From: Candidatus Aenigmatarchaeota archaeon
GTDB taxonomy: Archaea > Aenigmatarchaeota > Aenigmatarchaeia > Aenigmatarchaeales > Aenigmatarchaeaceae
Direction: 5' to 3'
DNA: 64,000 nucleotides
NCBI GenBank assembly: GCA_043802485.1
Contig: JAZDKZ010000006.1
Coordinates: 71,497 to 135,496 of the forward strand
The notes below the pieces were generated by a model. It ran no database searches. It saw only the letters and a list, made by a program, of their open reading frames with translations, and was not told where the DNA came from. The position numbers were made by a program, and so were the translations under genes. This document shows, in pieces, positions 912-49,853 of the stretch. Every line of letters starts with the position of its first letter. The first letter of the stretch is position 1.

Positions 912-986
912 TACCTTGCCATATTTCTCTAGCTTTGATGATATTCTTGAAGTAAATATTTAAGCCGGCTCTCACTAGTTATAGGC

Positions 987-1463: not shown

Positions 1464-1551
1464 TCCTGACAATTTTTATCCGGCTATTTTCACATAAGCA
1501 TAGGTCTGTAATTCTGCTAGTTTTGAGTAGCGTGAGAAAACATTAATAACA

Positions 1552-2106
1552 TCACTGGTCAGGATACTCTTCTACCATGTCCTCGTTGTAGACTATCTCC
1601 ACTCCCGCTTCCTTGAAGAATTTTCTTGTCAGCTCCCCGTTGTGGTACTTTTTCTGGCATACCACCCTTTTAATTCCGGCGTTGATTATCATCTTGGCGC
1701 AGGTGAAGCATGGCTCGAACTTTACGTAGAGCGTTGCTCCTTCTGTAGATATGCCGTGCAAGGCTGCCTGGACAATGGCATTCTGCTCTGCATGAGTCGT
1801 CCTTATGCAGTGCTTTGACTGCTTGCCGTCCGGGTTGATCACGTCGTGCATCAGATGACCGACTTCGTCGCAGTGCTTCAAACCTTTCGGCGAGCCGACG
1901 TAGCCTGTGGTAATTATTCTCTTGTTCCTGACAAGGACCGCTCCGTTCCTGCCCCTGTCGCAGGTGCCTCGCGTCCCCACAACCTTGGCTATCTCCATAA
2001 AGTACTCGTCCCAGGAAGGCCTCTTATATTCTTCCCTCTTTTCTGCAATCAACCTTTCTGCGATTTTGGCAATCTTGTCTTTCAGAAAAAGCTCGTCATC
2101 CATCAA
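1552..2106 (-). CDS. deoxycytidylate (dCMP) deaminase, ComEB-like
   Basis: zinc-binding cytidine/dCMP deaminase motifs HAEQNAI and PCFTCAKMI. Confidence 0.85.
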   Translation of the reverse strand: MMDDELFLKDKIAKIAERLIAEKREEYKRPSWDEYFMEIAKVVGTRGTCDRGRNGAVLVRNKRIITTGYVGSPKGLKHCDEVGHLMHDVINPDGKQSKHCIRTTHAEQNAIVQAALHGISTEGATLYVKFEPCFTCAKMIINAGIKRVVCQKKYHNGELTRKFFKEAGVEIVYNEDMVEEYPDQ

Positions 2107-2126
2107 TTGGAATTGACATTGAAATT

Positions 2127-3356: not shown

Positions 3357-3385
3357 AATACCACTCTCAATGGTAAATAAATTAT

Positions 3386-4258
3386 ATGTTTAATGTTTTT
3401 AATCAATCTCTAGACGATAAGATGAGAAATTATAGCATAAAAGAGTATAATGAGGTTCTTGAGCTTAGAAAGAAACGATTAACATTCAGAAAAATCTCTA
3501 AGATTTTGGGAATACCTATGAGTACCATATATATGTGGACTAGAGGCTCTTTGCCTATGAAGCATTCCAAAAAACATAGAGAACACAGAATAAAAAACAT
3601 AAAAATGATTAATGAGAAAAATAGAGGATCAAGAGAAGAAAAATACAATAATTTAAAACGGAAAATTGATACTAATTTTGCGTTCGTCTTAGGTTCTGTT
3701 TTAGGTGATGGTTGCATTAGTTTTACTAAGCGCAATGGTGGTCAGGTTACTCTAATTACTAAAGATAAGGACTTTGCTTTAGATTTTAAGAAATCGTTAG
3801 ATGAATGGAGTTTAATGAAATCTAAATTGATATATTATAGAAACGTATGGCAAGTATGGTCTTATTCTACAGTTATTGCAAAATGCCTAAAATATTATAA
3901 CCTTAGCGATATTTTCAGAACAGATGAAAACATTAAATGTTCCTTTCTAAGAGGTATATTCGATGCTGAAGGTAGTGTTGATGTTAAAGGCAAGAAGATA
4001 GTTTTTGCTAACACATCTACAGAAATAACAGAAATTACTAAAATATTATTGGAAGATATTGGAATAGAATGTAAAGTTTACAATAGATTCTCAAATACCA
4101 GATATATAGAAGGCAGGAAACTTTTTCCTGGCACATACTTTGTAATTCAGATAGGCTCTAGAGAAAATTTGAAAACATACCATGAGAAAGTGGGTTTTTC
4201 CATAAACAGAAAACAAGAAAGATTGGATAAGATTATAAAATCTTATAAGCCTCTTTGA
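3386..4258 (+). CDS. free-standing LAGLIDADG homing-endonuclease-like protein with N-terminal HTH
   Basis: two LAGLIDADG motifs (FVLGSVLGDGCI and FLRGIFDAEGSV); HTH-like LTFRKISKILGIPMSTIYMW; very AT-rich; its 3' end overlaps trmY convergently by 16 nt. Confidence 0.75.
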   Translation: MFNVFNQSLDDKMRNYSIKEYNEVLELRKKRLTFRKISKILGIPMSTIYMWTRGSLPMKHSKKHREHRIKNIKMINEKNRGSREEKYNNLKRKIDTNFAFVLGSVLGDGCISFTKRNGGQVTLITKDKDFALDFKKSLDEWSLMKSKLIYYRNVWQVWSYSTVIAKCLKYYNLSDIFRTDENIKCSFLRGIFDAEGSVDVKGKKIVFANTSTEITEITKILLEDIGIECKVYNRFSNTRYIEGRKLFPGTYFVIQIGSRENLKTYHEKVGFSINRKQERLDKIIKSYKPL

Positions 4259-7365: not shown

Positions 7366-7818
7366 TTAGAAGCTACCCTTGTAACAGTGTTTCAACTTCT
7401 TGTCATGATTCGTCTTCTCATATTTTTCAATGAATCTTTCCTCGTCCAGATAGTGCTTGCCTTCAATGTAACGGTTCTTGTAATTTTTCACAACAAGATA
7501 CAGCTTCTCAAGCTTGGAGAAGAGCTCATCCTTTCTTAGCTCTTCTAGCTTATCAGAATTTTTATCAATCAAGTCAAAGAAATCGATCAATGTCATTTTT
7601 TCCTTCAGAAGGTGAAGCCTTCTTTCTATTGCATCCACAGCAATCTGCTCACAGTAGACATCTCCAGTCAGGTAAAGAATGGCTCTTGCCTCGTTGACTT
7701 CATCCCAGCTGGGGTTTTCCTTGTCCAGTATGTTCTGGTATCTGTTCCAGAGCCTTTCCAGCTCTCCCTCTACTTTTTTCGGCTCCAGCATATATGTATA
7801 TTTCATTAGTTCTATCAT
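7366..7818 (-). CDS. hypothetical helical protein
   Basis: 150-aa ORF packed between flanking genes; no motif recognised. Confidence 0.4.
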   Translation of the reverse strand: MIELMKYTYMLEPKKVEGELERLWNRYQNILDKENPSWDEVNEARAILYLTGDVYCEQIAVDAIERRLHLLKEKMTLIDFFDLIDKNSDKLEELRKDELFSKLEKLYLVVKNYKNRYIEGKHYLDEERFIEKYEKTNHDKKLKHCYKGSF

Positions 7819-7830
7819 GGTTCAGACCGT

Positions 7831-9306
7831 TCACTCTAAAAGCTTGTCAACAAGCTTTTCTGCATCGAACTTTTCCAGATCTTCGTACTCTTGGCCTACT
7901 CCGAGGAAGAGTATCGGTTTGTTGATTGTGTGCGAGGCGGATAAGGCTGCTCCGCCCTTTTCATAGACATCAGCCTTTGTGAGTATCATGGCGTCTATGC
8001 CAACAGCATCGTTAAAGGTTTTGCACTGGTCATAGATGTCGTTGCCTGTCAATGCATCTAATACTAGAATCTTGAGGTCAGGTTTGTTGACCCTTATAAT
8101 TTTCTTCAGTTCGTCAACCAGATTGACGTTGGCATGGCTCCTGCCTGCAGTGTCTGCCAGTATCACATCTAATCCCTTTGACTCTGCGTGCTTCACTGCG
8201 TCGAAAATAACAGCTGCAGGATCTGCGCCGTACTTGTGCTTTATCACAGGTATGTTCAGGTTCCTGCCATGCTCTTCCAGCTGCTCGATGGCTGCTGCTC
8301 GCCACGAATCGGCTGCAGCGAACACGCAGCTGTAACCCTTTTTCTTAAGCATATGGCCTATTCGGGCTATGGAGGTGGTCTTGCCTGCGCCGTTGAAGCC
8401 CACGAAGACCATAAGGAAAGGCTTTTTGGCTTTTATTTTCTTTTCAATATCAAATGTTTCGATGTCTAGAATCTCTAGTATGGATTTCCTGATGGACTCC
8501 TTTACTATTTTCTCTATTTCCTTTTTCTTTATCGACTTGCCCACCAAGTTAGCTTTCAAATCGTTTGATATCTTCTCTGCCACATCGAGCGCGACATCCG
8601 ATTCTATGAGCCCTGTCTTCAAATCTTCAAGCATGTCCTTTACGTCATTCTCTTCCAATTCCTTCTCGGTGACTTTCTTCCTTATTCTCTGCAGGAAGCC
8701 CAATTTCTTTTTCGGCTTCTCCTCTTCGGTTTTTTTCTTTTCCACAACTCTTGGCTTTTCTTCAGTCTTTTTCTCTTCTACTTTGGTCTTGGGTTTTTCT
8801 TCGACCTTTTCTTTTTTGACTTCAACCTTAGGTTCTACTTTCTTGATCTCGGGCTTTTCGATAATTTTGACTTTCTTTTCTGGTTGCTTCTCCACAACCT
8901 CTTCCTTTGCCTCTACAATAGGCTCTATCTTTTCCATTGCTTTTTTTATTTCTTCCAGATCTTCTTTGATCTTGTCCAGCTTCTGAATTTCTGATGTCTC
9001 CTCGACCGGTTCTTCAACAACTTCTTCAGAAGGTTCCTCTTCAATTTCAGCTATTTCTGGTTCAATTTCTTCTTTCACTATTTGTTCAGGCTCTGCTTTT
9101 TCTATTTCTTCTGTGATAGGTTTTTCTTCAGAAACAGTTTCTTCCTCTGTTTCAGTAATCTCTTCTTCTGGTTGAGCTTCTTCTTCGACTTCCTCGATAA
9201 CTTCTTCTATTGGTTGTTCTTCTAGCTGCTCTTCTTCCTTCTGCTTTACCTTCTTAGAAATTTTATCTATTCCCTCTTTCAGCTTCTTTTTAAGAAATCC
9301 GAACAT
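7831..9306 (-). CDS. ftsY: SRP receptor FtsY with a long acidic/lysine-rich N-terminal domain
   Basis: NG domain motifs FVGFNGAGKTTSIARI, DTAGR and TKADV; first ~200 aa are E/K/P/I low complexity. Confidence 0.95.
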   Translation of the reverse strand: MFGFLKKKLKEGIDKISKKVKQKEEEQLEEQPIEEVIEEVEEEAQPEEEITETEEETVSEEKPITEEIEKAEPEQIVKEEIEPEIAEIEEEPSEEVVEEPVEETSEIQKLDKIKEDLEEIKKAMEKIEPIVEAKEEVVEKQPEKKVKIIEKPEIKKVEPKVEVKKEKVEEKPKTKVEEKKTEEKPRVVEKKKTEEEKPKKKLGFLQRIRKKVTEKELEENDVKDMLEDLKTGLIESDVALDVAEKISNDLKANLVGKSIKKKEIEKIVKESIRKSILEILDIETFDIEKKIKAKKPFLMVFVGFNGAGKTTSIARIGHMLKKKGYSCVFAAADSWRAAAIEQLEEHGRNLNIPVIKHKYGADPAAVIFDAVKHAESKGLDVILADTAGRSHANVNLVDELKKIIRVNKPDLKILVLDALTGNDIYDQCKTFNDAVGIDAMILTKADVYEKGGAALSASHTINKPILFLGVGQEYEDLEKFDAEKLVDKLLE

Positions 9307-14417: not shown

Positions 14418-14433
14418 TAATATCACGAAAGTG

Positions 14434-14504
14434 TGCACCGACCGGGACTCGAACCCGGATCGTGAGCTTGGAAGGCTCATATCCTACCATTAGACTATCG
14501 GTGC
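14434..14504 (-). tRNA. tRNA-Gly (UCC), no encoded CCA
   Basis: hand-folded cloverleaf: acceptor GCACCGA/TCGGTGC, anticodon stem TGAGC/GCTCA with loop CTTCCAA, T arm CCGGG-TTCGAGT-CCCGG; 71 nt. Confidence 0.9.
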
Positions 14505-14942: not shown

Positions 14943-15052
14943 TGGGGTTGCCAGGATTTGAACCTGGATCGGCTGGTTTCCTCTGTCATCTTTGGATCAA
15001 AGCTCCAAAAAATTGGAGCCAGCTATCTTAAACCTGGTTGGACGACAACCCC
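14943..15052 (-). tRNA. tRNA-Trp (CCA) with a 35-nt intron at the canonical 37/38 position, no encoded CCA
   Basis: acceptor GGGGTTG/CAACCCC, anticodon stem GCTGG/CCAGC, loop CTCCAA|intron|A, T arm CCAGG-TTCAAAT-CCTGG; 110 nt gene, 75 nt mature; intron approx 14978..15012. Confidence 0.85.
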
Positions 15053-16127: not shown

Positions 16128-16541
16128 TGAATATAAGATTGGAATAACTGCTTTATAAGCTTATTTATAATCGAAGGACACTTTCACTGAGAAAAAGTGG
16201 TATTTATAAGACAGAAAAGCTAATAATAGAAGGATACTAAAGAAGTTTTCTCTGTTAAAAGAGTTAAAAGAAATTAGTTATCTAAAATGGATGGTGATAA
16301 GTTGGGTAATGTTTTTGTAATGAGAGAGAAGTTTTTGGAAAGGCTTGCAGAGAGCAGGCACAGGGATGCAAAGAATACGGATTAAATCCCTCTTTTTCTT
16401 CATTTTCATGCTATCAGCAGAGCACCTATCACAATCATTATTACTGAGAGAGTCTTCAAAAACAGGGTGGACCTGATGGAAAACACTGCCCACAACATAT
16501 CATTATAATTTGATGGACTGGCTTAAAACGTTAAAAAGAAG

Positions 16542-16614
16542 TGGGCCCAGAGGGGCTCGAACCCTCGACCTACTGGTTAAGAGCCAGTCGCTCTACCGAC
16601 TGAGCTATGGGCCC
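16542..16614 (-). tRNA. tRNA-Lys (CUU), no encoded CCA
   Basis: GGGCCCA/TGGGCCC acceptor, D arm GCTC-AGTCGGTA-GAGC, anticodon loop CTCTTAA, T arm GAGGG-TTCGAGC-CCCTC; 73 nt. Confidence 0.92.
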
Positions 16615-28747: not shown

Positions 28748-29362
28748 ATGTTACAGGAATATAAAATCCAATTATTGAGGACTTTCTGGGAGAGCTGTGT
28801 CGAGGATGCGATAAAGGCACTCTCCATAATGATTAAGAGTGATGTGAAGAAAACTAGAACCATCATAAAAGTAAGCAACTTGAAGGAAATACCGAAGATG
28901 ATGAACCCCGAAGAGATAACCACAACCCTTGTCTATACAAAGGTTCCTGAGCAGATAAAATTCGTGATCATGTTCTCCTCGTCGCTTAGGGGCTTCCTGA
29001 ACCTCATAAACATGCTGCTGAACAAAAAGATTGACTATTATACCGCGCTGAACGAGGACAACGAACCGGTTATGGTGGAGTTTGGCAACATAATAAACGG
29101 CTATTTTGTCTCTTCCCTTGACAGGGTGTTCGGCAAGGATTTGAACTACCAGGATGCCGTGATATCGACCAATCCCTTCAGGGCCGTGGAGGATTTCGGA
29201 ATGGGCAACATATACAAGGAAAAGGTCAAGGTCCTCGTCTTCAGGACAGACTTTAGTGTAAAGAACGAAAACGTAGAGGGCAAGATGTTCCTGTTGGCTG
29301 AAGAGAAAAAACTGGATGTCCTTTTAGAGGAGATAAGCAGGAACATACGTTTTAAAGCTTAG
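28748..29362 (+). CDS. CheC-like protein (CheY-P phosphatase family), one intact motif
   Basis: 204 aa; second repeat has E-x2-N (MVEFGNIINGYFVSSL); first repeat is degenerate; 1-nt gap after the response regulator. Confidence 0.6.
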   Translation: MLQEYKIQLLRTFWESCVEDAIKALSIMIKSDVKKTRTIIKVSNLKEIPKMMNPEEITTTLVYTKVPEQIKFVIMFSSSLRGFLNLINMLLNKKIDYYTALNEDNEPVMVEFGNIINGYFVSSLDRVFGKDLNYQDAVISTNPFRAVEDFGMGNIYKEKVKVLVFRTDFSVKNENVEGKMFLLAEEKKLDVLLEEISRNIRFKA

Positions 29363-30186
29363 AACCTGTGGCCCAACTTCTCGAAAATCCCTTTCATTAC
29401 CAAGGCGTCCTGTTCTAGGACAGGTGATTCGGAAATCAATGTTATATCAATCTTTCTTTTCAGAATTTCCTTGGCAAAGTCCTTAAAGTCTGGGCCTGCC
29501 TCGGCCATTGGGACGTGGTTCTTTTCATTCCCCTTTCCAGGACTTACAACAGAATAGTTTATCCCGGAGAAGTGCGAATCGTATTTTTTTAGTTTCAATA
29601 CCTTTAGCTTGTCGAAAATTTCTTTATAATCAATCTTTCCTGCGTTGCCTGCATAGATGTGAGCCACATCAAGGTATGGTATCACGTTCTTTATTTTCTT
29701 TGAGATTGGTATTATCTCGTCCAAGGTTCCGAAGGACTTTTGCTTGCCCATGGTCTCCAGACCCAACTTTATCTTCCAATTGTTCTTTTCGATCGAGTCG
29801 GAAATTTCCTGACAGGCGTCTGTTATCATCTCTATCGCATTTTCTTTGTCCTTGCCATAGTAACCCCCATGAACAACCACAACAGTTGCTCCCATTGCTT
29901 CCCCTCTGTGAAGAGAATCGAGAATCCTTTTCTTGCTAGCTTTTATCACGTCGTTTTTTTCGCTTGCCAGGTTTATGTAATATGGAGCGTGCACTGATAA
30001 TTCAACATCCAATTCCTTGGCAACCTTGCCGAACTCTTTGGCTGCAGGTATTTGCATATAGACGCCATGAGTGAAGGCGACCTCCATAGCATCCAGTCCC
30101 AATTCAGAAATGCATTTGACACCTTCTGCCGAAGAGCCCCCTTTGCAGGATAGGGGTATGCCTGAAGAGCCTATACGTATTTTCAT
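29359..30186 (-). CDS. endonuclease IV-like AP endonuclease (xylose isomerase-like TIM barrel)
   Basis: 275 aa; metal-ligand pattern ..LSVHAPYYINL.., VVVVHGG, LGLETMG, LDVAHIY, typical of archaeal Nfo-like enzymes. Confidence 0.75.
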   Translation of the reverse strand: MKIRIGSSGIPLSCKGGSSAEGVKCISELGLDAMEVAFTHGVYMQIPAAKEFGKVAKELDVELSVHAPYYINLASEKNDVIKASKKRILDSLHRGEAMGATVVVVHGGYYGKDKENAIEMITDACQEISDSIEKNNWKIKLGLETMGKQKSFGTLDEIIPISKKIKNVIPYLDVAHIYAGNAGKIDYKEIFDKLKVLKLKKYDSHFSGINYSVVSPGKGNEKNHVPMAEAGPDFKDFAKEILKRKIDITLISESPVLEQDALVMKGIFEKLGHRF

Positions 30187-30654
30187 CTAATCTTCCTTCT
30201 TCTTGAAGAACAGCCAGTTCTTAGGTGGTTTGAACTTCACCAGAACGTAGCTGCCTTTCAGCTTTTTGCCCTTTATGTTGAATATTATCTTTTTTGGCTT
30301 CTTATCTATTAATTCGAATGTACCGTTGTCCCATATCTTTACTTTTCCTGCCCCATATTGTTCTTCAGGTATTGAGCCCTCAAAGGTAGCATAGTCTAAA
30401 GGGTGGTCTTCTACCTCCACAGCCAGAAGTTTCTTTCCCTTCAATGTCAACAACGGATCTTTAGGTATGGCCCAACTTTTTAGCACACCATCAAACTCAA
30501 GGCGAAGGTCATTATGTAAATGGCTTGCCCAATGACGCTGTATTACATAAGTAAAATGGTTCTTTTTATTGTTTGTTTTATTAATCTTTCCTTTAGGTTC
30601 AGTTGTGCCTTTTTTGTCCCGTTTACGTTTTTTTACGTATTCATTTAGAGACAT
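30187..30654 (-). CDS. stand-alone LigD-type 3'-phosphoesterase (PE) domain protein
   Basis: YVIQRHWASHLHNDLRLEFDGVLKSWAIPK...HPLDYATFEGSIPEEQYGAGKVKIWDNGTFEL matches the LigD PE signature. Confidence 0.8.
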   Translation of the reverse strand: MSLNEYVKKRKRDKKGTTEPKGKINKTNNKKNHFTYVIQRHWASHLHNDLRLEFDGVLKSWAIPKDPLLTLKGKKLLAVEVEDHPLDYATFEGSIPEEQYGAGKVKIWDNGTFELIDKKPKKIIFNIKGKKLKGSYVLVKFKPPKNWLFFKKKED

Positions 30655-41117: not shown

Positions 41118-42104
41118 TTGCCAAGAAAAAGCGCGAAAAAAGCAAAAGTTTGTCCGGATTGCGGCTCCAAATATTTTAGAGAGGACCCGTCAAGAGGGGA
41201 GACTGTTTGCGCGAAATGCGGTCTAATTTTGGAAGAAGAGATGATAGATACTTCTCCAGAATGGAGGGCTTTTGACGAAGAGCAGATGTCCAGAAGGACC
41301 AGAGCTGGCGCTCCTTTGACCTTTACCAAGCATGACAAGGGTCTTACAACAGAGATAGGTAGGGGAAGGGGAGAGCTTTTCAAGGTTGCTCCGTCCAAGA
41401 GGGCTCAGTACTACAGGCTGACAAAGTGGCAAAAGAGGCTGGTCGAGTCAAAGGACAGAAACCTGTCTTTCGCTCTGTCAGAGCTTCAGAGACTGATATC
41501 TTTCCTTGGTCTGCCAAGGTCTGTTCACGAGGAAGTTGCAAAGAAGTACGAACAGGCTGTTGACAGGGGCTTGGTCAGAGGAAGGTCAATGGAGTCTGTT
41601 ATAGCAGCTCTGCTGTACACAGTCTGCAGGGAAATGGGCACTCCTAGGACTCTGGAAGAAATAGCAGAAGCTTCTGGTGTGGAGAGAAGGGAGATTGGAA
41701 GAACCTACAGGTACATAGCAAGGGAGCTCGGCATGAGAATCCTGCCTGCTATGCCAAAGGACTATGTTCCAAGATTCGCGTCCATGCTAGGTCTGACCGA
41801 CAAGGTCCAGGCAAGGGCAATAAGATACCTCAAAAAGGCCAAGCAGATAGAGGCTTCCTCAGGAAAGGGGCCGACTGGCGTGGCAGCTGCAGCATTGTAC
41901 ATTGCAGCTGTGCTGGAAGGCGAGAAGAGGACTCAAAGAGAAATAGCCGACGCTATTGGTGTGACAGAGGTTACCATAAGGAACAGGTTCAAGGAACTTG
42001 TGGAAAAACTCGGCTTGGAAGAAGAGGTTGAGAAGAAGGTCAGGGAAGAAAGCACGGAAAGAATAGAAAGAAAGGCCAAGAGACTAGCCAAGAAAAAGAA
42101 ATAG
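41118..42104 (+). CDS. tfb: transcription initiation factor IIB (TFB) with K/E-rich C-terminal tail
   Basis: zinc ribbon CPDCGS...CAKCG, B-reader/linker SPEWRAF, two cyclin repeats; TTG start inferred (no upstream in-frame ATG). Confidence 0.93.
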   Translation: MPRKSAKKAKVCPDCGSKYFREDPSRGETVCAKCGLILEEEMIDTSPEWRAFDEEQMSRRTRAGAPLTFTKHDKGLTTEIGRGRGELFKVAPSKRAQYYRLTKWQKRLVESKDRNLSFALSELQRLISFLGLPRSVHEEVAKKYEQAVDRGLVRGRSMESVIAALLYTVCREMGTPRTLEEIAEASGVERREIGRTYRYIARELGMRILPAMPKDYVPRFASMLGLTDKVQARAIRYLKKAKQIEASSGKGPTGVAAAALYIAAVLEGEKRTQREIADAIGVTEVTIRNRFKELVEKLGLEEEVEKKVREESTERIERKAKRLAKKKK

Positions 42105-42359
42105 TCAATACCTTTTCATTTTTTCTTCTATTAGCTTTAGCCTAGTGTCTATTGTGTCCAGCTTTTGTAGCACAAGCTCCATCTTGTCGCCTCTGAACTC
42201 TTCCCTCGGCATGTCCAAAGGCTTGTCATAAAAGTCTGTTCTGGACTCTTCTGGTTGAGGTAGCCTGAATTTCTCTAGGTCGCTCGGCAGGCTTGTCGGC
42301 AAGTCAGGAGCTATCCTTACCTCTTCCTTTTTTCTTTTGAATCTGTCTAGCATACTCAT
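42105..42359 (-). CDS. hypothetical small protein with C-terminal coiled coil
   Basis: 84-aa ORF; 4-nt overlap with the upstream gene. Confidence 0.4.
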   Translation of the reverse strand: MSMLDRFKRKKEEVRIAPDLPTSLPSDLEKFRLPQPEESRTDFYDKPLDMPREEFRGDKMELVLQKLDTIDTRLKLIEEKMKRY

Positions 42360-42850
42360 TTAACCACCATTTTCTCCAACTCTTTTTTCAGCTCGTTTTC
42401 CAGCTCTTCCAGCCTTGCTTTAGCTTCTGCTAAATACTTTCTTCTTTGCTCTGAATAAAACAAGCGCGAGTAAAGCAGAACAAGACCCTTGCCCATCAGG
42501 TTAGAATATTTGAACTCTGTCTGAAGCGCACCTGTTATCTCTATCTCGATGCTACCTATTTTGTTCTTGTTCTGCGATCCGAATACTTTGACTTTCGCCC
42601 ATACAGATGTTCTTTCGTCTTTGGGGTCGTTTCCTCTCCACTCACCGTAGAAGTCCGTGTTCTCTGTCGAGACGTCCCACTTTATCTTGTCCTCGTAGAA
42701 CTTTGAGCCTCTAAGCCTGAAGATGTTTTTCATCAAGTCAGGAACTATTTTCAAGAATCTCGAAGGATGTTGACCGGTGAACTTTAATTTTTTCGCGTGC
42801 TCCGGCGCCAGCACATCAGCCTTGAGCTTTAGGCTAGTCATGTTGGACAC
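42356..42850 (-). CDS. hypothetical protein, paralog of 42834..43337
   Basis: 164 aa; beta-rich core ending IEITGALQTEF then a long C-terminal helix; shared pattern with its neighbour. Confidence 0.45.
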   Translation of the reverse strand: MSNMTSLKLKADVLAPEHAKKLKFTGQHPSRFLKIVPDLMKNIFRLRGSKFYEDKIKWDVSTENTDFYGEWRGNDPKDERTSVWAKVKVFGSQNKNKIGSIEIEITGALQTEFKYSNLMGKGLVLLYSRLFYSEQRRKYLAEAKARLEELENELKKELEKMVVK

Positions 42851-43337
42851 TTGACAAGACTCTTAATTCGTTGACAAAGCTTGAAAGAAGGTATCTGCCA
42901 TTCCTCATGAACTCGTCTCTCTTTGATGAATAGAACGATGAATGCCATAACATCCTCATGAACTCGTACAGCAGGCTCTTCTGCCACGCTGTGTCCTGGG
43001 GATACTCTGTTCTAAGAGCGCCCTCCACTACTATCTTGGCGCTTCCAGTTGTTTTGGACGCTTCGCCTTCAAGTGAAACCTCGACCCAGTAATACGAGAA
43101 CTTGTCCAGGTCCTTTTGCAGCTCCCACTTTATCTTGAACTTTTCAGGGTTTCCCTTTGACCAGTGAAACTCTTTTTCCTGTATAGAATGCTCATGAACT
43201 CGGAAGTTGGCTATCAGCAGGTTGTATATCTCCTTGTAGAACTTTCTTGAATCCACCCCGTCGAACTGCATGGTCATCTTAGGGACAGGCCTTAGCAAAT
43301 CGTCGTGTATCATCAGTTTTGTTCTTGCCCAGACCAT
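42834..43337 (-). CDS. hypothetical protein, paralog of 42356..42850
   Basis: 167 aa; core ending IVVEGALRTEY then a C-terminal helix; 17-nt overlap with the downstream paralog. Confidence 0.45.
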   Translation of the reverse strand: MVWARTKLMIHDDLLRPVPKMTMQFDGVDSRKFYKEIYNLLIANFRVHEHSIQEKEFHWSKGNPEKFKIKWELQKDLDKFSYYWVEVSLEGEASKTTGSAKIVVEGALRTEYPQDTAWQKSLLYEFMRMLWHSSFYSSKRDEFMRNGRYLLSSFVNELRVLSSVQHD

Positions 43338-43395
43338 TTTTATCTAAGCTAATATTAGATAAACGTTTTTATAAACTTTATATCAATTATTAATT

Positions 43396-43560
43396 ATGAT
43401 TTTGAAGGTTCTGGGTCTAATAATGCTTTTCTTGGGATTTCTAGTGCTAAAGTACTTTCCTGACATGTCTGACTACCAGCAAAAAGGAATGACGTCCTTC
43501 GGGATATTGATAGGGGTTGTATTATCTATAACAGGCATAATAATGTTAATAGTGGGTTGA
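43396..43560 (+). CDS. 54-aa two-TM membrane peptide
   Basis: hand-translated MILKVLGLIMLFLGFLVLKYFPDMSDYQQKGMTSFGILIGVVLSITGIIMLIVG; TTTTTATAAA box about 25 nt upstream; its stop abuts the next ORF. Confidence 0.35.
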   Translation: MILKVLGLIMLFLGFLVLKYFPDMSDYQQKGMTSFGILIGVVLSITGIIMLIVG

Positions 43561-43566
43561 TTGGGG

Positions 43567-45240
43567 ATGGACAAGGATATATTTGAACTTAAAAAAATTG
43601 TGAATATAGACAAACCTACTATGGGTCTCTTTCTTTGCGCCGGGCCTAAGGAGGCCCCTGGTCTGGAGGAGAAAGCCAACCAAATCACAGAATTGAATTT
43701 TACAGGCAAGCCGGGTTCAGCTTCTGCATTATATTATTCACTATTCTTCCAGCTGCCAAAGTGGGGCTGGGAGGTAGCAAAGGCTGACGAGTGGATAGAT
43801 GTCTCCCCGACGCATAGGGAGTATTATGAAAGGACTGTCTCGACAAAGCAGATGTTGGAATCAACGATAAAGACCGGTTTGGCAACAGCTGCTCAGTCTG
43901 TTGCTGACTATGAGCTGATGAGCCACGACCTGAGAAAATACACGGAGATTCTAGGTTATTTTGCAAGCAAAGACGAGCATGTTTTGAGGTCGATGTTCGT
44001 TGACCAGGTTGATGTGCACACAGACATGCCTGGCCAGCCTCTGAGCATGAGGTCAATTGCGCCAAGATGGCCCACAATAATTGCTGACTTCCTTAGCCTG
44101 AATGAAGATGACAAAGATATCAAGGACATTGCCAAGAAGCTAAACATCTCCAATGCCGAAGCGTTGATACTAGTCACAAAGAACAAGCTTTATTTGGAAT
44201 GGAAAAAACTTTTCGAGGGCGTTGCCAAGGAAAGATATGCATCCATGAGGGGCTTGGTGAATGGCAGGAAAAAATCAATAGAAGAATACAGGAACTGGCT
44301 AAAGCCTTACATCACAAGGTTCAGGATGACACGCCTTGGAGGTGAAAATAAAATTTTTAGGGCTGGCGCAATCAAGTCTTTTGTTGACATAGCAGGCCAG
44401 TCGACTTTCTCCAATGGTATAAGGATTTTTGCTTGGAAACCTTTCAAGACAGTGGAGATTAGAAAGCCTGCAGCAGAACTCAAAAATGGTTTTGTCGTTT
44501 ACCCTTATGATGATTACACTAGGGACAATCTTATCTTTGGAAAATGGGGCCTTGCCAAAACCTACGGATGGTTAAGAAGTAAAAGGAAATATTGCTCTAG
44601 GTGTAACGACTACTATTCATCCGGAGCAGTAAGGTGTTCTGAATGCAAAAATGTGCATCTTGAGGACAGAACGTTTGCTGACGAGATAGTAGAAAAGGAG
44701 ATACTGGAAGCTTGGAAGAGTAGAGACAAGAACCTTGACCCTTACGAGCTCTACTATATGTTCCTTGATTTTGATGTCTTCAGGGTTGGTTCAAGGCTGC
44801 CTGTCGGTGAACTGGAGGATATAACATTCACTATAAGGAATTTCGTCATATCCCAAAACGTCATGCTGGTAAAGCTACTGGAAATGAAATGTAGGGAGAT
44901 TGAGCTGGAAAGGTACATAGACGAGATGCTGGGAGTCAGAGTCGGAGACATGGCATTTGACGAGATTCTCACAACAGACTTTCCAGCTTTCAAAAAAGAA
45001 GAAGAGTTTGGCGAATATCACAAGTTTGTCAAAGGTCTGAAGGAGACTGGCGAGGCCTATACCGGCTTCACTAAGAAAATCAAGTTTCCCAAGGTGGACA
45101 GGGAAAAGTTCATGTTCTTCAAGCACGGTCCCTATGAGGGCGACCTCAAGGATAGAATAGCAAAGAACTATCTCAGCATAGCTGGAGCCCAGTTCGGTGG
45201 AATCGTGGGCTTTATCAAATCACAGATGGGTGTTAGCTGA
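43567..45240 (+). CDS. large hypothetical protein with an internal zinc ribbon
   Basis: 557 aa from the first ATG (TTG at 43561 possible); only recognisable element is CSRC-x10-CSEC; otherwise no known motif. Confidence 0.55.
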   Translation: MDKDIFELKKIVNIDKPTMGLFLCAGPKEAPGLEEKANQITELNFTGKPGSASALYYSLFFQLPKWGWEVAKADEWIDVSPTHREYYERTVSTKQMLESTIKTGLATAAQSVADYELMSHDLRKYTEILGYFASKDEHVLRSMFVDQVDVHTDMPGQPLSMRSIAPRWPTIIADFLSLNEDDKDIKDIAKKLNISNAEALILVTKNKLYLEWKKLFEGVAKERYASMRGLVNGRKKSIEEYRNWLKPYITRFRMTRLGGENKIFRAGAIKSFVDIAGQSTFSNGIRIFAWKPFKTVEIRKPAAELKNGFVVYPYDDYTRDNLIFGKWGLAKTYGWLRSKRKYCSRCNDYYSSGAVRCSECKNVHLEDRTFADEIVEKEILEAWKSRDKNLDPYELYYMFLDFDVFRVGSRLPVGELEDITFTIRNFVISQNVMLVKLLEMKCREIELERYIDEMLGVRVGDMAFDEILTTDFPAFKKEEEFGEYHKFVKGLKETGEAYTGFTKKIKFPKVDREKFMFFKHGPYEGDLKDRIAKNYLSIAGAQFGGIVGFIKSQMGVS

Positions 45241-46781
45241 TGGGTTATATAGTAGGAATCTCAAGCGGTGCCTTTGGTCTTGTTGACCAGAAGGAAAAGC
45301 AAAACCTCATGACCATAACCAGAAAGATATTTGCAGGTGGTCTTGAGGGCGTCAACTTTACGCAGGTAGACCTGGAGGCCATAACCGAGTTCAACGAGCC
45401 TAATGTGAAGGAAGAGATAGAAAAGATAAAGGGATTGGGCATATCTTTTGGGTTTCATGGCGAGTTCTACGGCGGGTCAGAGAGACCCTTGGAGATGCTT
45501 GACTCTGCTATAGAATCAGACTACTTCCATTCTCACCAAAGATTGGTAGACCACATAGAGGGTTGTGGCAATCTTGGTGGCAAGTATGTTAACTTTCATC
45601 CTTCCCAAACAACACCTTTTACTAGATTGGGTAAAGACCTTCAACCTACAAAGCTTGTTGATCCCTGGGGCAGGCCTATGAAAAAATTCTTGGAAGAGAA
45701 CAAAAATTTGATGGATTGGATAGTAAAAAAAGAAAATGACTTTTTATGGGAATTTATCCGCACAACACCTAAAGATTTTATTGAAGATAGTGTTAAAAAT
45801 TTTGAATATCGTTATAAGGTTCAACATAATAAAGAACCTTCTGAAGGAGAAAAGGAAAAAATCTATAAAGAGGCAGTTGAAGAAGCTAAAAAAATTTTTA
45901 TAAGACATGTTAGCACTAGTGACCTTTCTTACGGTCCTGAAAAGGCTGCTTATTATATTATTGCAAAGTGGATGCAAGACAACAATGACTCTCTTTGGAA
46001 CAATATTGTTGGGGAAAAAATAAAAGATAAGGATTTGCCTAAAACGAAAAACATAAACAAATGGGTTCCTGCCGTATCCGCGAAATACATCTTGGGCCAC
46101 TTTCAACCAAAGAACGATCTCGATAACCCCACCAAACTGATGGAAAAATATAAGATATATTGTTTCTTCGAGGCTGAGATGGGCCGTGGCGGTCTGCAGG
46201 GCATGTCTAGAATAATCCGGCCTAGGGACTTTATATTTCTCTGTCAGGCAATCAAGTCCAAATGGGCTGCTGTTTGCATCGACTTTGAACACATACTTTC
46301 ACAGGACATTGACCCTGTCAAAGAGATAGAGTCAATTCCTCCAGGCTCAGCCGAGCGCGTAAAGCTTCTTCACCTGGGTTTTCCAACGCCACATGTTCCA
46401 GCCCACATGCCCATACCTTTGGGCTCCAAGGAGCAGCTGTGGTTGTATGAAAGGCTTTTCGAGCTGAGGCAGAAGGGCATGAAGGATGCTTGGATGATAT
46501 TTGAGAGAGCTGGCAATCCCAGGGAGCAGGTGATTCTTGTGTTAAGGCTGATGAAACAGTTCCTTGAAAAGGACATTGCTCCCAAAGAACTTCCATTAGA
46601 GTTCTATGGCATAAGGCCTGACGGGCCTGAGATGAGAAGGCAGGAGCTGGCAATGAGAGAGCATGCCCTAGACCCGCTGAAAGGATTGCTGACAGTGCCT
46701 GAGGAGGAGTACACCTTCCTGAGCTCGGCGGCAAAGAACAAGGGCAAGGCGGAGCTTTGGAGTAAAGAAAGGTTTAAATAA
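45240..46781 (+). CDS. xylose isomerase-like / AP endonuclease 2-type TIM-barrel metalloenzyme with a ~130-aa helical insertion
   Basis: IVGISSGAFG start, FHGE, VNFHP, IDFEH and HLGFP ligand-like motifs spaced as in this TIM-barrel family; TGATG overlap with the upstream gene. Confidence 0.55.
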   Translation: MGYIVGISSGAFGLVDQKEKQNLMTITRKIFAGGLEGVNFTQVDLEAITEFNEPNVKEEIEKIKGLGISFGFHGEFYGGSERPLEMLDSAIESDYFHSHQRLVDHIEGCGNLGGKYVNFHPSQTTPFTRLGKDLQPTKLVDPWGRPMKKFLEENKNLMDWIVKKENDFLWEFIRTTPKDFIEDSVKNFEYRYKVQHNKEPSEGEKEKIYKEAVEEAKKIFIRHVSTSDLSYGPEKAAYYIIAKWMQDNNDSLWNNIVGEKIKDKDLPKTKNINKWVPAVSAKYILGHFQPKNDLDNPTKLMEKYKIYCFFEAEMGRGGLQGMSRIIRPRDFIFLCQAIKSKWAAVCIDFEHILSQDIDPVKEIESIPPGSAERVKLLHLGFPTPHVPAHMPIPLGSKEQLWLYERLFELRQKGMKDAWMIFERAGNPREQVILVLRLMKQFLEKDIAPKELPLEFYGIRPDGPEMRRQELAMREHALDPLKGLLTVPEEEYTFLSSAAKNKGKAELWSKERFK

Positions 46782-46811
46782 AACATAAAATAATTACTAT
46801 TGAGTGATTAA

Positions 46812-48047
46812 ATGGTCAAGAGTGTTGGAAAGAAACTGAAAAAGTTCTCTGTTGAAACCAGGCTAAAGTCTGCAGAGGAGTTCAAGGAAAGGGTTCTTGG
46901 CATGTTCAAGACCTATGTAAAGTCCATAGTAGTTTTCGGTTCTTTCATGTTCGGCAAGGGAACAGGTAAATCTGATGTCGACGTCTATATCATATTTGAC
47001 GACACCAAGATGCCCTTGAAGAAATTCGACGACATAAGGGAAAAAATCAACAACGACCTGTACAAGGTCGCTGCCTCCATTGACCCAAGACTGCACCCTC
47101 AGCCCATACTTGCTCTTACAGAGTTCATCAAAGGCACCAGGTACACAAACCCCCTTTTCTTCAACATAATAAGGGATGGTTATGCTATTTACGATACTGG
47201 CTTCTTCATACCCATGAGGAAGCTTCTTGAATGGGGCGAGTTTCCCATCACTCCTGAGGCTGCCCACATGAGGATGGAGGGCGTTCCCAGGAGGATAACA
47301 AGGGTCAAAAGCGTCAAGCTCTATATAATCGCGGAGGATCTCTATTATGCCATGCTGGACGCTGCCCAAGCTGTTCTGATGTATGTTGGGGTTGGCCCGC
47401 CGTCGCCCAAGAACTCTGCCAGCGAGGTGAGGAAGCATCTGGTGGATGCCGATTTGCTTGAGGAAGAGTATGCACAAATGCTCCAGGACATCAACGAATT
47501 CAGAAAGAAGGTCGAGTACAAGGAGATAAAGGACATACCAGGAAAAGATGTGGACGAATGGATAAAAAAGACTGAAAAGTATGTCAAGAGGTTCGAAAAG
47601 CTGCTAAAGGACCTTGAGACTCAGAGGAAATCCTATGATATCAAGAGAAGTTATGATGTGATGGTCAATGCTTCTGCAGCTGCCCTGAAGAACCTCAAGA
47701 AGCTGCCCAAGGAGCCTGAGAAGCTGCCTGAGGCTTTCAAGAAATATCTTGTTGATACAGGCCTGATCAATCCCACCTACTCCGAGCTGTTCGGCAAGGT
47801 GGTCGAGATGAGGAGGATGCTTGAGGAGAACAAGCTGGACAAGATAAAGGACAAGGACATCTACTTGAACAAGGAATATGTGAGGAGATTCGTCACAGAC
47901 ATCTCGAGAATAATAAAGCAGCCAGTTCCACAGGAACCAGAGGACAAGATGAAAGAGGCCAAGCAGATGCTGGAAACTGCTGAAGAGGTCAGCAAGGTCA
48001 GGAAAAAGAGCAAAAAGGCTAAAAAAGCACGTCAGAAGTCGAAATAA
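46812..48047 (+). CDS. Pol-beta-superfamily nucleotidyltransferase fused to a HEPN-like helical region and K-rich tail
   Basis: NTase core VVFGSFMFGKGTGKSDVDVYIIFDD; following helical region resembles HEPN but I see no R-x4-6-H motif. Confidence 0.6.
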   Translation: MVKSVGKKLKKFSVETRLKSAEEFKERVLGMFKTYVKSIVVFGSFMFGKGTGKSDVDVYIIFDDTKMPLKKFDDIREKINNDLYKVAASIDPRLHPQPILALTEFIKGTRYTNPLFFNIIRDGYAIYDTGFFIPMRKLLEWGEFPITPEAAHMRMEGVPRRITRVKSVKLYIIAEDLYYAMLDAAQAVLMYVGVGPPSPKNSASEVRKHLVDADLLEEEYAQMLQDINEFRKKVEYKEIKDIPGKDVDEWIKKTEKYVKRFEKLLKDLETQRKSYDIKRSYDVMVNASAAALKNLKKLPKEPEKLPEAFKKYLVDTGLINPTYSELFGKVVEMRRMLEENKLDKIKDKDIYLNKEYVRRFVTDISRIIKQPVPQEPEDKMKEAKQMLETAEEVSKVRKKSKKAKKARQKSK

Positions 48048-48487: not shown

Positions 48488-49219
48488 ATGCCAAAGAAAG
48501 CTTCCGTTAAAGGTTCTTCTAGTGGTTCTGATTTTGAGAGGATTCCCTCTGGGATACCTGGTCTGGATGAATTGATGGAGGGAGGCTTCCCGAAAGGTTC
48601 TACTAATCTGGTTTCTGGTGCTGCCGGTACGGGCAAGACCATTTTCTGCTCACAATTCATTTGGGAAGGCCTACAGAAAGGTGAATCGTGTATGTATATC
48701 ACATTAGAGGAGAGACCGCAAGACATAATGGATGATGTCAGTAGGTTTGGCTGGGATTTTGAGCCGTATATTAAGGAAAAGAAGCTTTTCTTGGTCTATC
48801 AGGACCCGTTCCAGATGACTGATGTTACTTCTCCTCTGTTGGATGAGATCAAGCAGAAGAATGTTCAGCGAGTTGTTATCGACTCTACAGCCATTTTTGG
48901 CATGTACTACAAGGAGCCGTTCGAGATTAGGAAGCAGTTGTTCAAGCTTCTGAACGGTCTGAAGGACATTGGGGTCACCAGCGTCATAACCTCCGAGCTG
49001 CCTGAGGAGACGAACCAGCTTGCCAAGTTCGGTGTCGAAGAGTTTGTGGTCGACGGCGTCATTATTCTGAGATATATCGGCATAGGTGGGGAAGATTTTG
49101 TGAATCTGCAGGTCAGGAAGATGAGAAGAACCAAGCATGCTAACGCATGGTTCCCCATGACAATATCAGATAAAGGTATTCGGATAAAGAAAGAAGAACG
49201 AAGAGTATTAATGAAGTGA
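48488..49219 (+). CDS. single-domain KaiC/RadA-like ATPase
   Basis: IPSGIPGLDELMEGGFPKGSTNLVSGAAGTGKTIFCSQFI (Walker A), RVVIDST (Walker B-like). Confidence 0.88.
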   Translation: MPKKASVKGSSSGSDFERIPSGIPGLDELMEGGFPKGSTNLVSGAAGTGKTIFCSQFIWEGLQKGESCMYITLEERPQDIMDDVSRFGWDFEPYIKEKKLFLVYQDPFQMTDVTSPLLDEIKQKNVQRVVIDSTAIFGMYYKEPFEIRKQLFKLLNGLKDIGVTSVITSELPEETNQLAKFGVEEFVVDGVIILRYIGIGGEDFVNLQVRKMRRTKHANAWFPMTISDKGIRIKKEERRVLMK

Positions 49220-49223
49220 GGAA

Positions 49224-49853
49224 ATGGGGCTTTCCTTAATAACAAAACTTTTGATTTCAAAGCAGCTTAGATTCGAAGATGGTAGGATAGTGTTCTTAGA
49301 GGAACCCATGGCTTTTGTTCCAATTGAGTTTTATATTCATTTAACAAAGGAGATAAACAAGAAAAGAAGAGACAAGATGGAGGTGTATTTGGATGCATGG
49401 AAGGCTGGAGTCATTTTCATGCGTAGTGTAGCAAAGAGATACACCATGAGTAGGTTTGAGGAAAGGTACAATGAGGCTATGGAAATAATTTCCTCCGCAG
49501 GTTTCGGCGACTATCAGACTTTGGATTTTGTACCTACTAAATATGCTCAATTTAAGATATTCAACAATCCGATAGCAGAAAAATTCTTTCCCTCCAAGAA
49601 ACCAATAGATCATGTATTGCGGGGCTTCAACGCTGGAGGGGGTTCCCCGGTTCACGAAAGAATCATTAATACTATTGAAACAGAATGCAAGGCTGTTAAT
49701 GGCAAATACTGTATACACCTAAACGGTGCTACTGAGGTGCTGAAGCAGGCCAAGTACAAGAAATTTGTAAAGGACCAACTAGACTTGCCATTTCTATTAA
49801 AAGAACAGAAAAAATTCCTCAAAGAAATAAATTACAAAGAGATAAAGCCCTAG
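49224..49853 (+). CDS. V4R-domain protein
   Basis: LRFEDGRIVFLEEPMAFVPIEFY N-terminal pattern and GFGDYQ...VLRGFNAGGG...ETECKAVNGKYCIHL V4R core. Confidence 0.6.
   Translation: MGLSLITKLLISKQLRFEDGRIVFLEEPMAFVPIEFYIHLTKEINKKRRDKMEVYLDAWKAGVIFMRSVAKRYTMSRFEERYNEAMEIISSAGFGDYQTLDFVPTKYAQFKIFNNPIAEKFFPSKKPIDHVLRGFNAGGGSPVHERIINTIETECKAVNGKYCIHLNGATEVLKQAKYKKFVKDQLDLPFLLKEQKKFLKEINYKEIKP

Follow-up and report, generated by a model that had tools for sequence, protein, structure and literature searches.

What do seven closely packed genes do in an archaeon of the phylum Aenigmatarchaeota, and do they belong together? We asked this of a cluster at positions 42,105 to 48,047 of a 64,000-nucleotide stretch of DNA (hereafter, the window), which spans positions 71,497 to 135,496 of contig JAZDKZ010000006.1 in the Candidatus Aenigmatarchaeota archaeon assembly GCA_043802485.1. 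The cluster consists of two divergent operons (Table 1). One encodes the paralogs PAR-A and PAR-B and a small protein, cc84; the other encodes a short membrane peptide (tm54), a large protein (BIG), a TIM barrel (TIM), and a nucleotidyltransferase (NTase) fused to HEPN-like sequence (NT). An earlier note on this DNA had mapped seven open reading frames (ORFs), their overlaps, and a 58-bp divergent spacer, and the ORF listing of the window reproduced that map exactly. Aenigmatarchaeota belong to the DPANN archaea, which are abundant, ultra-small, and host-dependent, and in whose genomes one-third to one-half of the genes are labelled hypothetical; to our knowledge, Aenigmatarchaeota have no cultured representative. 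Here, we report that the seven genes stay together as a linked set across approximately 80 sampled species, that they probably encode one machine built around the membrane peptide, the TIM barrel, and the nucleotidyltransferase, and that this machine may, on a tentative reading, act on nucleic-acid ends.

For 84 loci, we predicted ORFs and screened them with hidden Markov models (HMMs) built iteratively from each window protein, then counted linkage in the 80 species representatives with enough flanking sequence. The tm54 gene adjoins BIG in 67 of 76 loci, 64 of 72 have two PAR genes upstream of BIG at a distance within 3 kb, and TIM stands directly downstream of BIG in 60 of 71, or anywhere in the locus in 63 of 71. 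NT is the most loosely linked member. It occurs within the locus in 38 of 50 cases, and where both genes are present the gap between TIM and NT is shorter than 200 nt in 34 of 50 and shorter than 1 kb in 43 of 50; genes inserted between the two include a PNP_UDP_1 gene in locus L001. Because gene order is kept across the species-representative genomes down to approximately 33% identity in BIG, the arrangement lies far beyond chance.

Synteny of the flanking genes decays over the same loci. Only 27 loci have the TFB gene that borders the window cluster, and 16 have aIF5A; in other loci their place is taken by ABCE1, an Obg/YchF-type GTPase, or deoxyhypusine synthase. Rearrangements within the loci have kept partners together: the TIM-NT pair has been relocated as a unit to the opposite side of the PAR genes, still adjacent, in L068/L076 and L090, and the PAR genes with tm54 are inverted yet still abut BIG in L041/L051/L057. 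NT follows TIM through these rearrangements. Since the flanks turn over while relocated partners stay together, the pattern argues for functional linkage rather than residual synteny. A neighborhood survey of homologs had been proposed in the earlier note, and its result, linkage in most of the approximately 80 species, shows that the co-localization holds. The companion claim, that coupling implies one functional unit, stands insofar as the genes form a linked set, with the qualification that NT is less tightly tied than the other six.

Start and stop codons overlap or abut within both operons, which points to co-translation. On the minus strand the overlaps in the window are 4 nt (cc84/PAR-B) and 17 nt (PAR-B/PAR-A). 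On the plus strand, the tm54 stop abuts or overlaps the BIG start, and the TIM start shares the A of a TGATG with the BIG stop (position 45240), an overlap present in most of the genomes sampled. The cluster is thus composed of two divergent, translationally coupled halves, PAR-A/PAR-B/cc and tm54/BIG/TIM(/NT). The spacer between them is a putative divergent promoter. It holds a palindromic TATA-like element, GTTTTTATAAAC, at positions 43365 to 43376, which is kept in seven close relatives (L005-L010, L022) and whose center lies approximately 25 nt upstream of the tm54 ATG. This conserved position in mid-spacer suggests a leaderless rightward transcript, and the element possibly serves both operons as one bidirectional TATA box. 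An Rfam scan found no structured RNA inside or beside the cluster, and GC content is constant across the cluster and its surroundings in the window.

Table 1. Genes and spacer of the divergent cluster, in window coordinates
Feature	Position	Strand	Length	Description or source
cc84	42105..42359	-	84 aa	ORF listing of the window
PAR-B	42356..42850	-	164 aa	ORF listing; paralog of PAR-A
PAR-A	42834..43337	-	167 aa	ORF listing
Divergent spacer	43338..43395		58 bp	Between both operons
tm54	43396..43560	+	54 aa	Two-transmembrane (two-TM) hairpin peptide
BIG	43561..45240	+	559 aa from TTG, or 557 aa from ATG at 43567	
TIM	45240..46781	+	513 aa	PF01261 metal-dependent TIM barrel
NT	46812..48047	+	411 aa	Fused minimal NTase and HEPN-like domain(s); Lys-rich C-terminal tail

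Homologs of the cluster proteins are confined to a narrow part of the archaeal tree. The window BIG is 100% identical to a hypothetical protein encoded on a 265-kb contig of a Candidatus Aenigmatarchaeota metagenome-assembled genome (MAG). In a collection of 5.8 billion proteins we found 433 homologs of BIG, 170 of PAR-A, and 309 of TIM; the named ones are all annotated as hypothetical, and their source organisms are Aenigmatarchaeota or generically labelled or mislabelled DPANN MAGs. Searching the BIG profile against 1.84 billion cluster representatives returned only 268 clusters at 50% identity. BIG relatives are encoded by 138 GTDB species representatives, whose named records are nearly all Aenigmatarchaeota, although a few bear the label Nanoarchaeota, Micrarchaeota, or just archaeon; one of the BIG-bearing records is a closed 1.05-Mb chromosome (CP070801.1). 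A scan of the IMG/VR viral contigs gave zero copies or relatives. The remotest BIG relatives include a protein of "Aenigmarchaeota ex4484_52" (Caliditerrarchaeota, EX4484-52) and one from a MAG labelled Nanohaloarchaea by NCBI. Aenigmatarchaeota, Caliditerrarchaeota, and Nanohaloarchaeota have been proposed to form one clade, ACN, and a halophilic family exists within Aenigmatarchaeota (preprint 10.1101/2025.08.05.668663). The contigs with acidic proteomes among our loci probably come from related halophilic DPANN lineages; because of that halophilic family, an origin within Aenigmatarchaeota is also possible. Overall, the module is vertically inherited, single-copy, and part of the chromosomal core genome, and it is restricted to the Aenigmatarchaeota branch of DPANN plus diverged Caliditerrarchaeota and halophile-like relatives.

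Two distant loci indicate which parts are retained most widely. In L086, a locus with an acidic proteome, three cc-like proteins face BIG (487 aa), which is followed by TIM, a pullulanase-like gene, NT, and Trm1; the TIM there is 833 aa long and matches the TIM HMM at E=9e-45, and the NT matches at E=2e-83. In L088, from the "Nanohaloarchaea" MAG, two cc-like proteins face BIG (460 aa). PAR and tm54 are absent from both loci, and two or three tandem cc-like copies (in L088 and L086, respectively) stand in for the PAR-PAR-cc trio. A short PF01261 gene beside the L088 BIG was considered as a TIM orthologue and rejected: the TIM HMM did not match it at E<0.01, and its best match was CbiR, so we excluded it from the evidence for BIG-TIM linkage. 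The parts retained most widely are therefore cc and BIG; in L086, one of the two distant loci, they are accompanied by TIM and NT. The distant BIG sequences that we read (L086 BIG and the L088 family) also lack the four-cysteine (Cys4) zinc ribbon, and the Cys4 pattern occurs in only 19 of 83 BIG family members. Because they are missing from these reduced loci, and given that count for the ribbon, PAR, tm54, and the ribbon look like later Aenigmatarchaeota additions.

No described defense, repair, surface, or phage system matched the cluster in searches of PADLOC, PHROGs, Pfam, NCBIfam, and PDB sequences or in Foldseek searches of PDB and BFVD, and a literature search gave no precedent for the combination of parts, in agreement with the earlier note, which knew of no described defense, repair, or surface system composed in this way. 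BIG, PAR, cc, and tm54 are new families, and the system as a whole is new in the sense of an unrecognized composition and unrecognized folds rather than of a proven new function. The operon pair is as conserved in sequence as core housekeeping proteins are, which suggests that its function is important.

All four are orphan families, and BIG, the largest of these proteins, has no known fold neighbor. Its AlphaFold2 (AF2) model, built from 45 sequences (pLDDT 77, pTM 0.71), has two helices of approximately 50 residues (86-136 and 198-256), several beta-hairpins and sheets, and a C-terminal helix. Invariant positions number approximately 50, with charged or aromatic residues frequent among them (e.g., ELxxHDLRKY, IDQVDVHTD). 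Scans of BIG against Pfam, NCBIfam, PADLOC, and PHROGs gave no family match, and Foldseek searches of the model against PDB and BFVD gave no match with E below 0.003 and nothing capsid-like or viral. The Foldseek matches obtained were to generic coiled coils (dynein stalk, SMC arms, BAR/IMD), with low-probability matches to BAR/IMD and START domains and a zinc ribbon resembling L40e. That ribbon, CSRC-x10-CSEC at residues 345 to 362 (559-aa numbering), had been singled out as the recognizable element of the protein; it is present in the window copy, but the family counts given above show that it does not define the family. Several other assignments were tried and set aside. Against PDB sequences, the only match was a stretch of MRCK kinase (E=6e-4 over 70 residues), which we judged spurious. 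Pfam scans of the members returned only zinc-ribbon families and a weak stretch of FeeM (N-acyl amino acid synthase), an assignment that was unconvincing because it covered only residues ~61-115 of 15 of 45 members at E~0.03. The invariant residues H122-D123 and D148..D151.H153 suggested an HD-phosphohydrolase, for which Foldseek gave no fold support, and the idea that BIG is an expansion related to PAR was rejected (hhalign probability 0.2%).

PAR-A and PAR-B were recognized in the earlier note as paralogs with a long C-terminal helix, and both points are borne out: they share 27% identity (E=2e-13), and the AF2 model of PAR (pLDDT 82) has the topology beta2-alpha-beta4 followed by a 45-residue helix. 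PAR-A homologs are 54-86% identical and almost always 164 aa long; none of the 170 carries a Pfam domain, and PAR matched nothing in Pfam, NCBIfam, PADLOC, PHROGs, or PDB sequence and profile searches. The top Foldseek neighbors of the model are Cyt1Aa (E=9e-5) and volvatoxin, at E~1e-4 and probability 0.99-1.0, followed by SRPBCC proteins (CoxG, PYL, PR-10, START; E~3e-3, probability 0.4-0.8, TM-scores of only 0.2-0.33). Membership of PAR in the Cyt delta-endotoxin/volvatoxin family was rejected, since the best Cyt-type matches (3ron_A and 6t14) reached TM-scores of 0.21-0.27, below the criterion of 0.5, with a root-mean-square deviation above 8 Å, and PAR has only two helices, against the two layers of alpha-hairpins that flank the sheet in that fold. 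PAR, an alpha/beta protein of approximately 165 aa, resembles SRPBCC/Bet v 1 proteins and Cyt toxins in combining an antiparallel sheet with a long helix at its C terminus. It differs from them in its topology (beta2-alpha-beta4-alpha), which is simpler than either (SRPBCC is beta-alpha-alpha-beta6-alpha around a hydrophobic ligand cavity), in the lack of any sequence signal, in its polar conserved residues (the most conserved stretch reads GALRTEYPQDT…W..SLLYE..R..WH..FY), and in occurring as an obligate paralog pair with a coiled-coil partner. As modelled, PAR is helix-grip-like and weakly resembles both families, and we assign it to neither.

The cc84 protein had been described as an 84-aa coiled-coil protein. 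The C-terminal helix is indeed conserved (...RLKLIEEKMKRY), but a better description places the protein in a fast-evolving family whose members also carry a short, conserved N-terminal motif (M..LDRFK.K in cc84) and a disordered middle. The HMM found the family in 32 loci, and equivalents recognized by position in distant loci are 107-290 aa long with the same terminal motifs; the constant features are M..[LF]D.[IF]K.K, the disordered middle, and the C-terminal helix (…RL..IE..…RY / …I..LL..I...L). The cc-like proteins of L086 (5257-6902) and L088 (5366-6870) contain a long disordered middle with many Arg, Gly, Lys, and Pro residues; those of L088 are strongly basic (pI 9.3 and 10.6), and those of L086 have a basic N-terminal half followed by an acidic stretch. 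No match to cc84 was found in Pfam, NCBIfam, PADLOC, PHROGs, or PDB sequences. We considered whether the N-terminal motif is a membrane-targeting amphipathic helix and rejected the idea, as it is too polar (mean hydrophobicity -0.77). The remaining small protein, tm54, was correctly recognized at the outset as a two-TM peptide: it is strongly hydrophobic (GRAVY hydropathy score 1.47), has no Cys, and carries a conserved loop, FPDMSDY. It is tandemly duplicated to 111-112 aa in L089 and L090, and Pfam, NCBIfam, PADLOC, and PHROGs returned only transmembrane noise for it, while PDB sequences gave no match.

TIM is one of the two products whose chemistry can be discussed. The window protein matches PF01261 at E=2.2e-5 with 24.7 bits, under the gathering score of 31.1; in the family, 38 of 43 members match (best E=8.8e-10), and many database homologs carry a precomputed PF01261 assignment. 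At the family level, TIM is therefore a divergent member of PF01261. Eleven residues are invariant in the 43 homologs (H73, E75, H99, H120, D141, E311, D348, H351, H378, H389, and E422). Together with the PF01261 matches, this invariance of the ligand residues bears out the initial identification of a TIM-barrel metalloenzyme of the xylose isomerase/AP endonuclease 2 fold. Eight of the invariant residues (H73, H120, E311, D348, H351, H378, H389, and E422) pair colinearly with H69, H109, E145, D179, H182, H216, H231, and E261 of endonuclease IV (Endo IV; Nfo) in a motif-level alignment that is not statistically significant. In this alignment, eight of the nine trinuclear-Zn ligand positions of Escherichia coli Nfo thus have invariant counterparts, and the equivalent of Nfo D229 is Ala or Pro.

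In profile searches of PDB, both at full length and with the insertion removed, TIM has the Endo IV family as its top matches, namely 6khy (African swine fever virus apurinic/apyrimidinic [AP] endonuclease) and 2x7v/4hno (Thermotoga maritima), at E=0.18-0.4. Among NCBIfam nfo models, it scores best with deoxyribonuclease IV (NF002197), reaching 11.5 bits (E=0.12) where the cut-off is 376. A global hhalign alignment to E. coli Nfo failed, and only local motif matches were obtained. The likeness to Endo IV and AP_endonuc_2 consists of the colinear motifs FHGE, NFHP, FE(A/T), DFEH, HLG, AHMP, and FER. The differences are that TIM is approximately 230 aa longer, including a helical insertion of approximately 120 aa and a conserved C-terminal extension of approximately 75 aa, that the D229 equivalent is not conserved, and that the matches are insignificant (E 0.1-0.4). 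An Endo IV-like multinuclear metal site is the best reading of TIM, although it is not statistically established. A second PF01261 protein is encoded in the window on the minus strand (29359-30654), where a 275-aa protein abuts a 155-aa LigD 3'-phosphoesterase-domain protein. The 275-aa protein is nfo-like by NCBIfam (E ~9e-15 to 1e-11, below cut-offs) and MJ1311-like by PDB (3wqo, 5e-8), and the 155-aa protein matches TIGR02777 at 168.7 bits, above the cut-off. The two look like a small DNA-end-repair gene pair, positionally unrelated to the cluster, and TIM is thus a specialized paralogous family rather than the sole enzyme of the cell with this fold.

NT begins with an NTase domain that matches PF01909 at 29.2 bits (cut-off 21) and PF18765 at 28.3 bits (cut-off 26.9); G43, S44, S54, D55, D57, D63, and D64 (GS / SDxD / DD) are invariant in 54 of 54 orthologues, and in PDB its closest relative is kanamycin NTase (6p01, E=1.4e-8). 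Behind the NTase domain come helical regions that resemble HEPN. The HEPN match of the window protein (PF05168, E=0.045) lies under the cut-off, and its motif, RKKVEY at residues 231 to 236, lacks the His. The description of NT as an NTase joined to a HEPN-like region without an Rx4-6H motif is thus correct for the fold and for the window copy but does not extend to the family, in which the motif RKxVEH (Rx4H) is found in 40 of 54 members (74%). R is present in 53 of 54, E in 54 of 54, and H in 40 of 54; RKKVEY occurs in the window NT plus seven others, and K or N takes the His position in five. Since the His is replaced in some orthologues while the Arg and Glu are essentially invariant, the His may be dispensable for the function of the family. 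In L083 the orthologue (7440-8813) carries an N-terminal (HhH)2/HHH_5 domain (PF14520, E=5.8e-12) and has a HEPN match at E=0.0017 in a second region. Other orthologues have Lys-rich N-terminal extensions of 40-90 residues, and Lys-rich N- or C-terminal tails are common.

NT appears to be a divergent fused MNT-HEPN (minimal nucleotidyltransferase-HEPN) enzyme of the kanamycin NTase (KNTase) type. Like kanamycin nucleotidyltransferase ANT(4')-I and the MntA/HepT relatives, it has an N-terminal Pol-beta NTase domain followed by a helical HEPN/KNTase_C-like domain. Unlike them, it has a second helical region and Lys-rich tails and exceeds them in length by approximately 150 aa, and its family differs from typical fusions in retaining Rx4H in the proportion given above and in including one lineage with an HHH_5 fusion. 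A type VII toxin-antitoxin (TA) assignment (MntA/HepT) was rejected because NT is a single 411-aa fusion rather than two small genes and because its scores with the MntA and HepT models, 21.8 and 16.3 bits, fall short of the cut-off of 60; NT is also chromosomal and syntenic with a TIM barrel, in contrast to a two-gene TA dyad. A gene for a Metallophos phosphoesterase directly follows NT in 11 loci, and in L003 its start overlaps the NT stop. Elsewhere, a co-directional ATP-dependent DNA ligase gene lies beyond NT, separated from it by the gene for a 67-aa TM protein (L089, 12577-14378), an HhH-GPD DNA glycosylase gene abuts BIG (L090, 8735-9553), and Trm1 adjoins NT in both L086 and L090.

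What, then, would such a machine do? Tentatively, we read the cluster as a membrane-anchored module that processes phosphodiester-linked or nucleic-acid ends, an account that we favor while thinking it more apt to fail than to hold. All products would form one complex at the cytoplasmic membrane. The tm54 peptide, translationally coupled to BIG, would be the membrane anchor, BIG would be the scaffold, and the PAR heterodimer and cc would dock through their long C-terminal helices. The chemistry would be done by the TIM-NT pair, with TIM as an endonuclease-IV-like multinuclear-metal phosphodiesterase and NT as an MNT-HEPN nucleotidyltransferase with nucleic-acid-binding appendages. The substrate would be a nucleic-acid end (RNA or DNA) or another phosphodiester-linked polymer, which TIM would cleave or heal and NT would nucleotidylate. 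We favor nucleic-acid ends on several grounds: TIM appears to have an Endo IV-like site; NT joins an MNT-HEPN architecture, in most orthologues with Rx4H, to Lys-rich tails and, in one orthologue, to an HhH domain; the disordered cc regions of L088 are basic; and phosphoesterase and nucleotide-salvage genes recur as neighbors. The broader suggestion in the earlier note, a nucleic-acid or glycan/lipid modifying machine, was too wide: the TIM and NT evidence leans toward nucleic acid, and nothing pointed to glycans.

Several observations weigh against this reading. No significant similarity links TIM to any specific enzyme, the Endo IV matches being those at E=0.1-0.4, and PF01261 also includes sugar isomerases/epimerases and the cobamide phosphodiesterase CbiR. 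The window already encodes the 275-aa Endo IV-like protein, which is of more canonical type, so TIM need not be the housekeeping AP endonuclease. The DNA ligase, glycosylase, and Trm1 neighbors are single or double occurrences that may be coincidence. Nucleic-acid repair systems do not usually include a membrane peptide, the HEPN His is replaced in the window NT and about a quarter of the orthologues, and the nearest structural neighbors of PAR bind lipids, not nucleic acids. Moreover, fused MNT-HEPN proteins frequently nucleotidylate small molecules or proteins (PMC3710099). Our confidence is low because a lipid or membrane role would suit the fold of PAR and the membrane peptide no less well, because TIM is placed in PF01261 but not firmly in any subfamily, and because MNT-HEPN fusions often act on such other substrates.

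That lipid or membrane role is possible but unlikely. PAR proteins would be lipid binders of a helix-grip or Cyt-toxin-like kind that, with tm54 and the long BAR/IMD-like helices of BIG, extract, shuttle, or remodel host membrane lipids; TIM would serve as a phosphodiesterase or isomerase of the head groups, with the product activated by NT. Lipid synthesis is generally missing from DPANN archaea. The structural neighbors of PAR, Cyt1Aa and volvatoxin first and SRPBCC proteins after them, are consistent with this role, as are the low-probability BAR/IMD and START matches of the BIG model, the coupling of a membrane peptide to BIG, and the fact that PF01261 includes phosphodiesterases with substrates other than nucleic acid, among them CbiR, which the short TIM-like protein in L088 matches best. 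However, the TM-scores of the PAR matches are only 0.2-0.33, and the conserved PAR surface is polar (LRTEYPQDT, WH..FY), with no obvious lipid cavity. The HhH and Lys-rich appendages of NT and its HEPN motif indicate nucleic acid. Lipid binding also cannot explain the retained core, because PAR and tm54 are missing from the distant loci in which cc and BIG persist (with TIM and NT, too, in L086).

We are a little more doubtful still that the cluster is a structural or cytoskeletal scaffold for division, cell shape, or a host-contact site, in which BIG, PAR, and cc would form polymers or shape membranes and TIM and NT would be unrelated passengers of the operon. The strong conservation and constant length of PAR, the many invariant BIG positions, the long helices of BIG, PAR, and cc, the cc architecture of a disordered tether with a C-terminal docking helix, and the single-copy core-genome location would all suit a scaffold. 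Pfam and Foldseek searches, however, revealed no likeness to FtsZ, actin, ESCRT-III/PspA, bactofilin, SepF, or CdvA. TIM is hard to reconcile with the part of an unrelated passenger because its coupling to BIG through the TGATG is widespread and the pairing persists in L086.

A further proposal, to which we give similarly limited credence, treats the cluster as a shared derived trait of the ACN clade. It would be a membrane-anchored machine with new folds (BIG, PAR, and cc) that couples an Endo IV-like metallo-phosphodiesterase and an MNT-HEPN enzyme to the membrane, taking in, processing, or salvaging host-derived nucleic acids, other phosphodiester polymers, or lipids at the symbiont-host interface.

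It is quite improbable that the genes form no functional unit and are lineage-specific housekeeping genes kept together by slow rearrangement in small genomes. DPANN genomes are compact, and TFB, aIF5A, histone, and L35Ae are also syntenic within the closer clade. Yet TFB and aIF5A are kept in far fewer loci than the core set, which is found in 60-67 of approximately 72 loci down to 33% BIG identity, rearranged genes stay adjacent, and the start/stop overlaps indicate co-translation.

Two other accounts, like the preceding one, are disfavored by the features tested, and both are very improbable. The first is peptide modification of the type found in clusters for ribosomally synthesized and post-translationally modified peptides (RiPPs), with tm54 as the precursor, TIM as an enzyme like the multinuclear non-heme-iron oxidases (MNIOs), and BIG as the partner or recognition protein. 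MNIO (DUF692) enzymes have a xylose-isomerase-like TIM fold with a trinuclear His/Asp/Glu site (PMC12257519). The fold is common to MNIO and the window TIM, and our cluster resembles MNIO clusters in placing, in this order, a small peptide gene, a large partner, and a TIM barrel in one translationally coupled operon. It differs in that TIM matches PF01261 and no DUF692 (PF05114) at E up to 1 (window) or 0.1 (members), in that tm54, where MNIO systems have a soluble precursor with Cys or Asp, is a hydrophobic Cys-free membrane hairpin, tandemly duplicated in some lineages and absent from distant BIG loci, in the absence of a linked protease or exporter, and in its vertical, phylum-wide, single-copy core-genome location, which is unlike that of a secondary-metabolite cluster. 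The second, a defense or TA island around the MNT-HEPN gene, would be in keeping with the weak matches of the NTase domain to MntA, HepT, and the PADLOC candidate PDC-S09 and with Rx4H in most NT orthologues, but PADLOC (PADLOC-DB v2) matched the NTase domain only (generic PDC-S09 and PDC-M05A) and nothing in the other six proteins, the cluster is single-copy, syntenic, and vertically conserved across the phylum beside TFB, aIF5A, or ABCE1, it was not found on viral contigs and has the GC content of its surroundings, and fused MNT-HEPN proteins are typical of "domesticated" enzymes (PMC3710099). The cluster is neither a defense island nor a mobile element.

The cluster is a compact, strongly conserved, clade-defining operon pair with four families that have no homologs outside the clade, and it could mark the proposed ACN clade. 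With seven genes, including two recognizable enzymes with assayable chemistry, it offers a tractable target for probing Aenigmatarchaeota-specific biology. If host nucleic acids or lipids are in fact handled at the membrane, the cluster would bear on how DPANN symbionts obtain building blocks; if it is an ACN membrane machine at the symbiont-host interface, it would be part of the long-sought molecular basis of DPANN host dependence.

The genes flanking the cluster in the window are archaeal housekeeping genes: TFB (41118-42104), aIF5A, a histone, L35Ae, and a KaiC-like ATPase. In L014, the ORF that matches TFB (986-3418) encodes approximately 810 aa, compared with approximately 330 aa elsewhere, and could contain an intein or another insertion. 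Downstream of NT, after L35Ae, the window encodes a KaiC/RadA-like ATPase (243 aa) and a coupled 209-aa protein (48488-49853); a KaiC-like gene follows NT in approximately 11 closely related loci (cluster c15) and in none beyond those. Away from the cluster, a 110-nt tRNA was detected by Rfam on the minus strand (14943-15052, 43.5 bits) without an ARAGORN call and is probably an intron-containing archaeal tRNA, and the window also carries ordinary tRNAs, Gly-TCC at 14433-14504 and Lys-CTT at 16541-16614.

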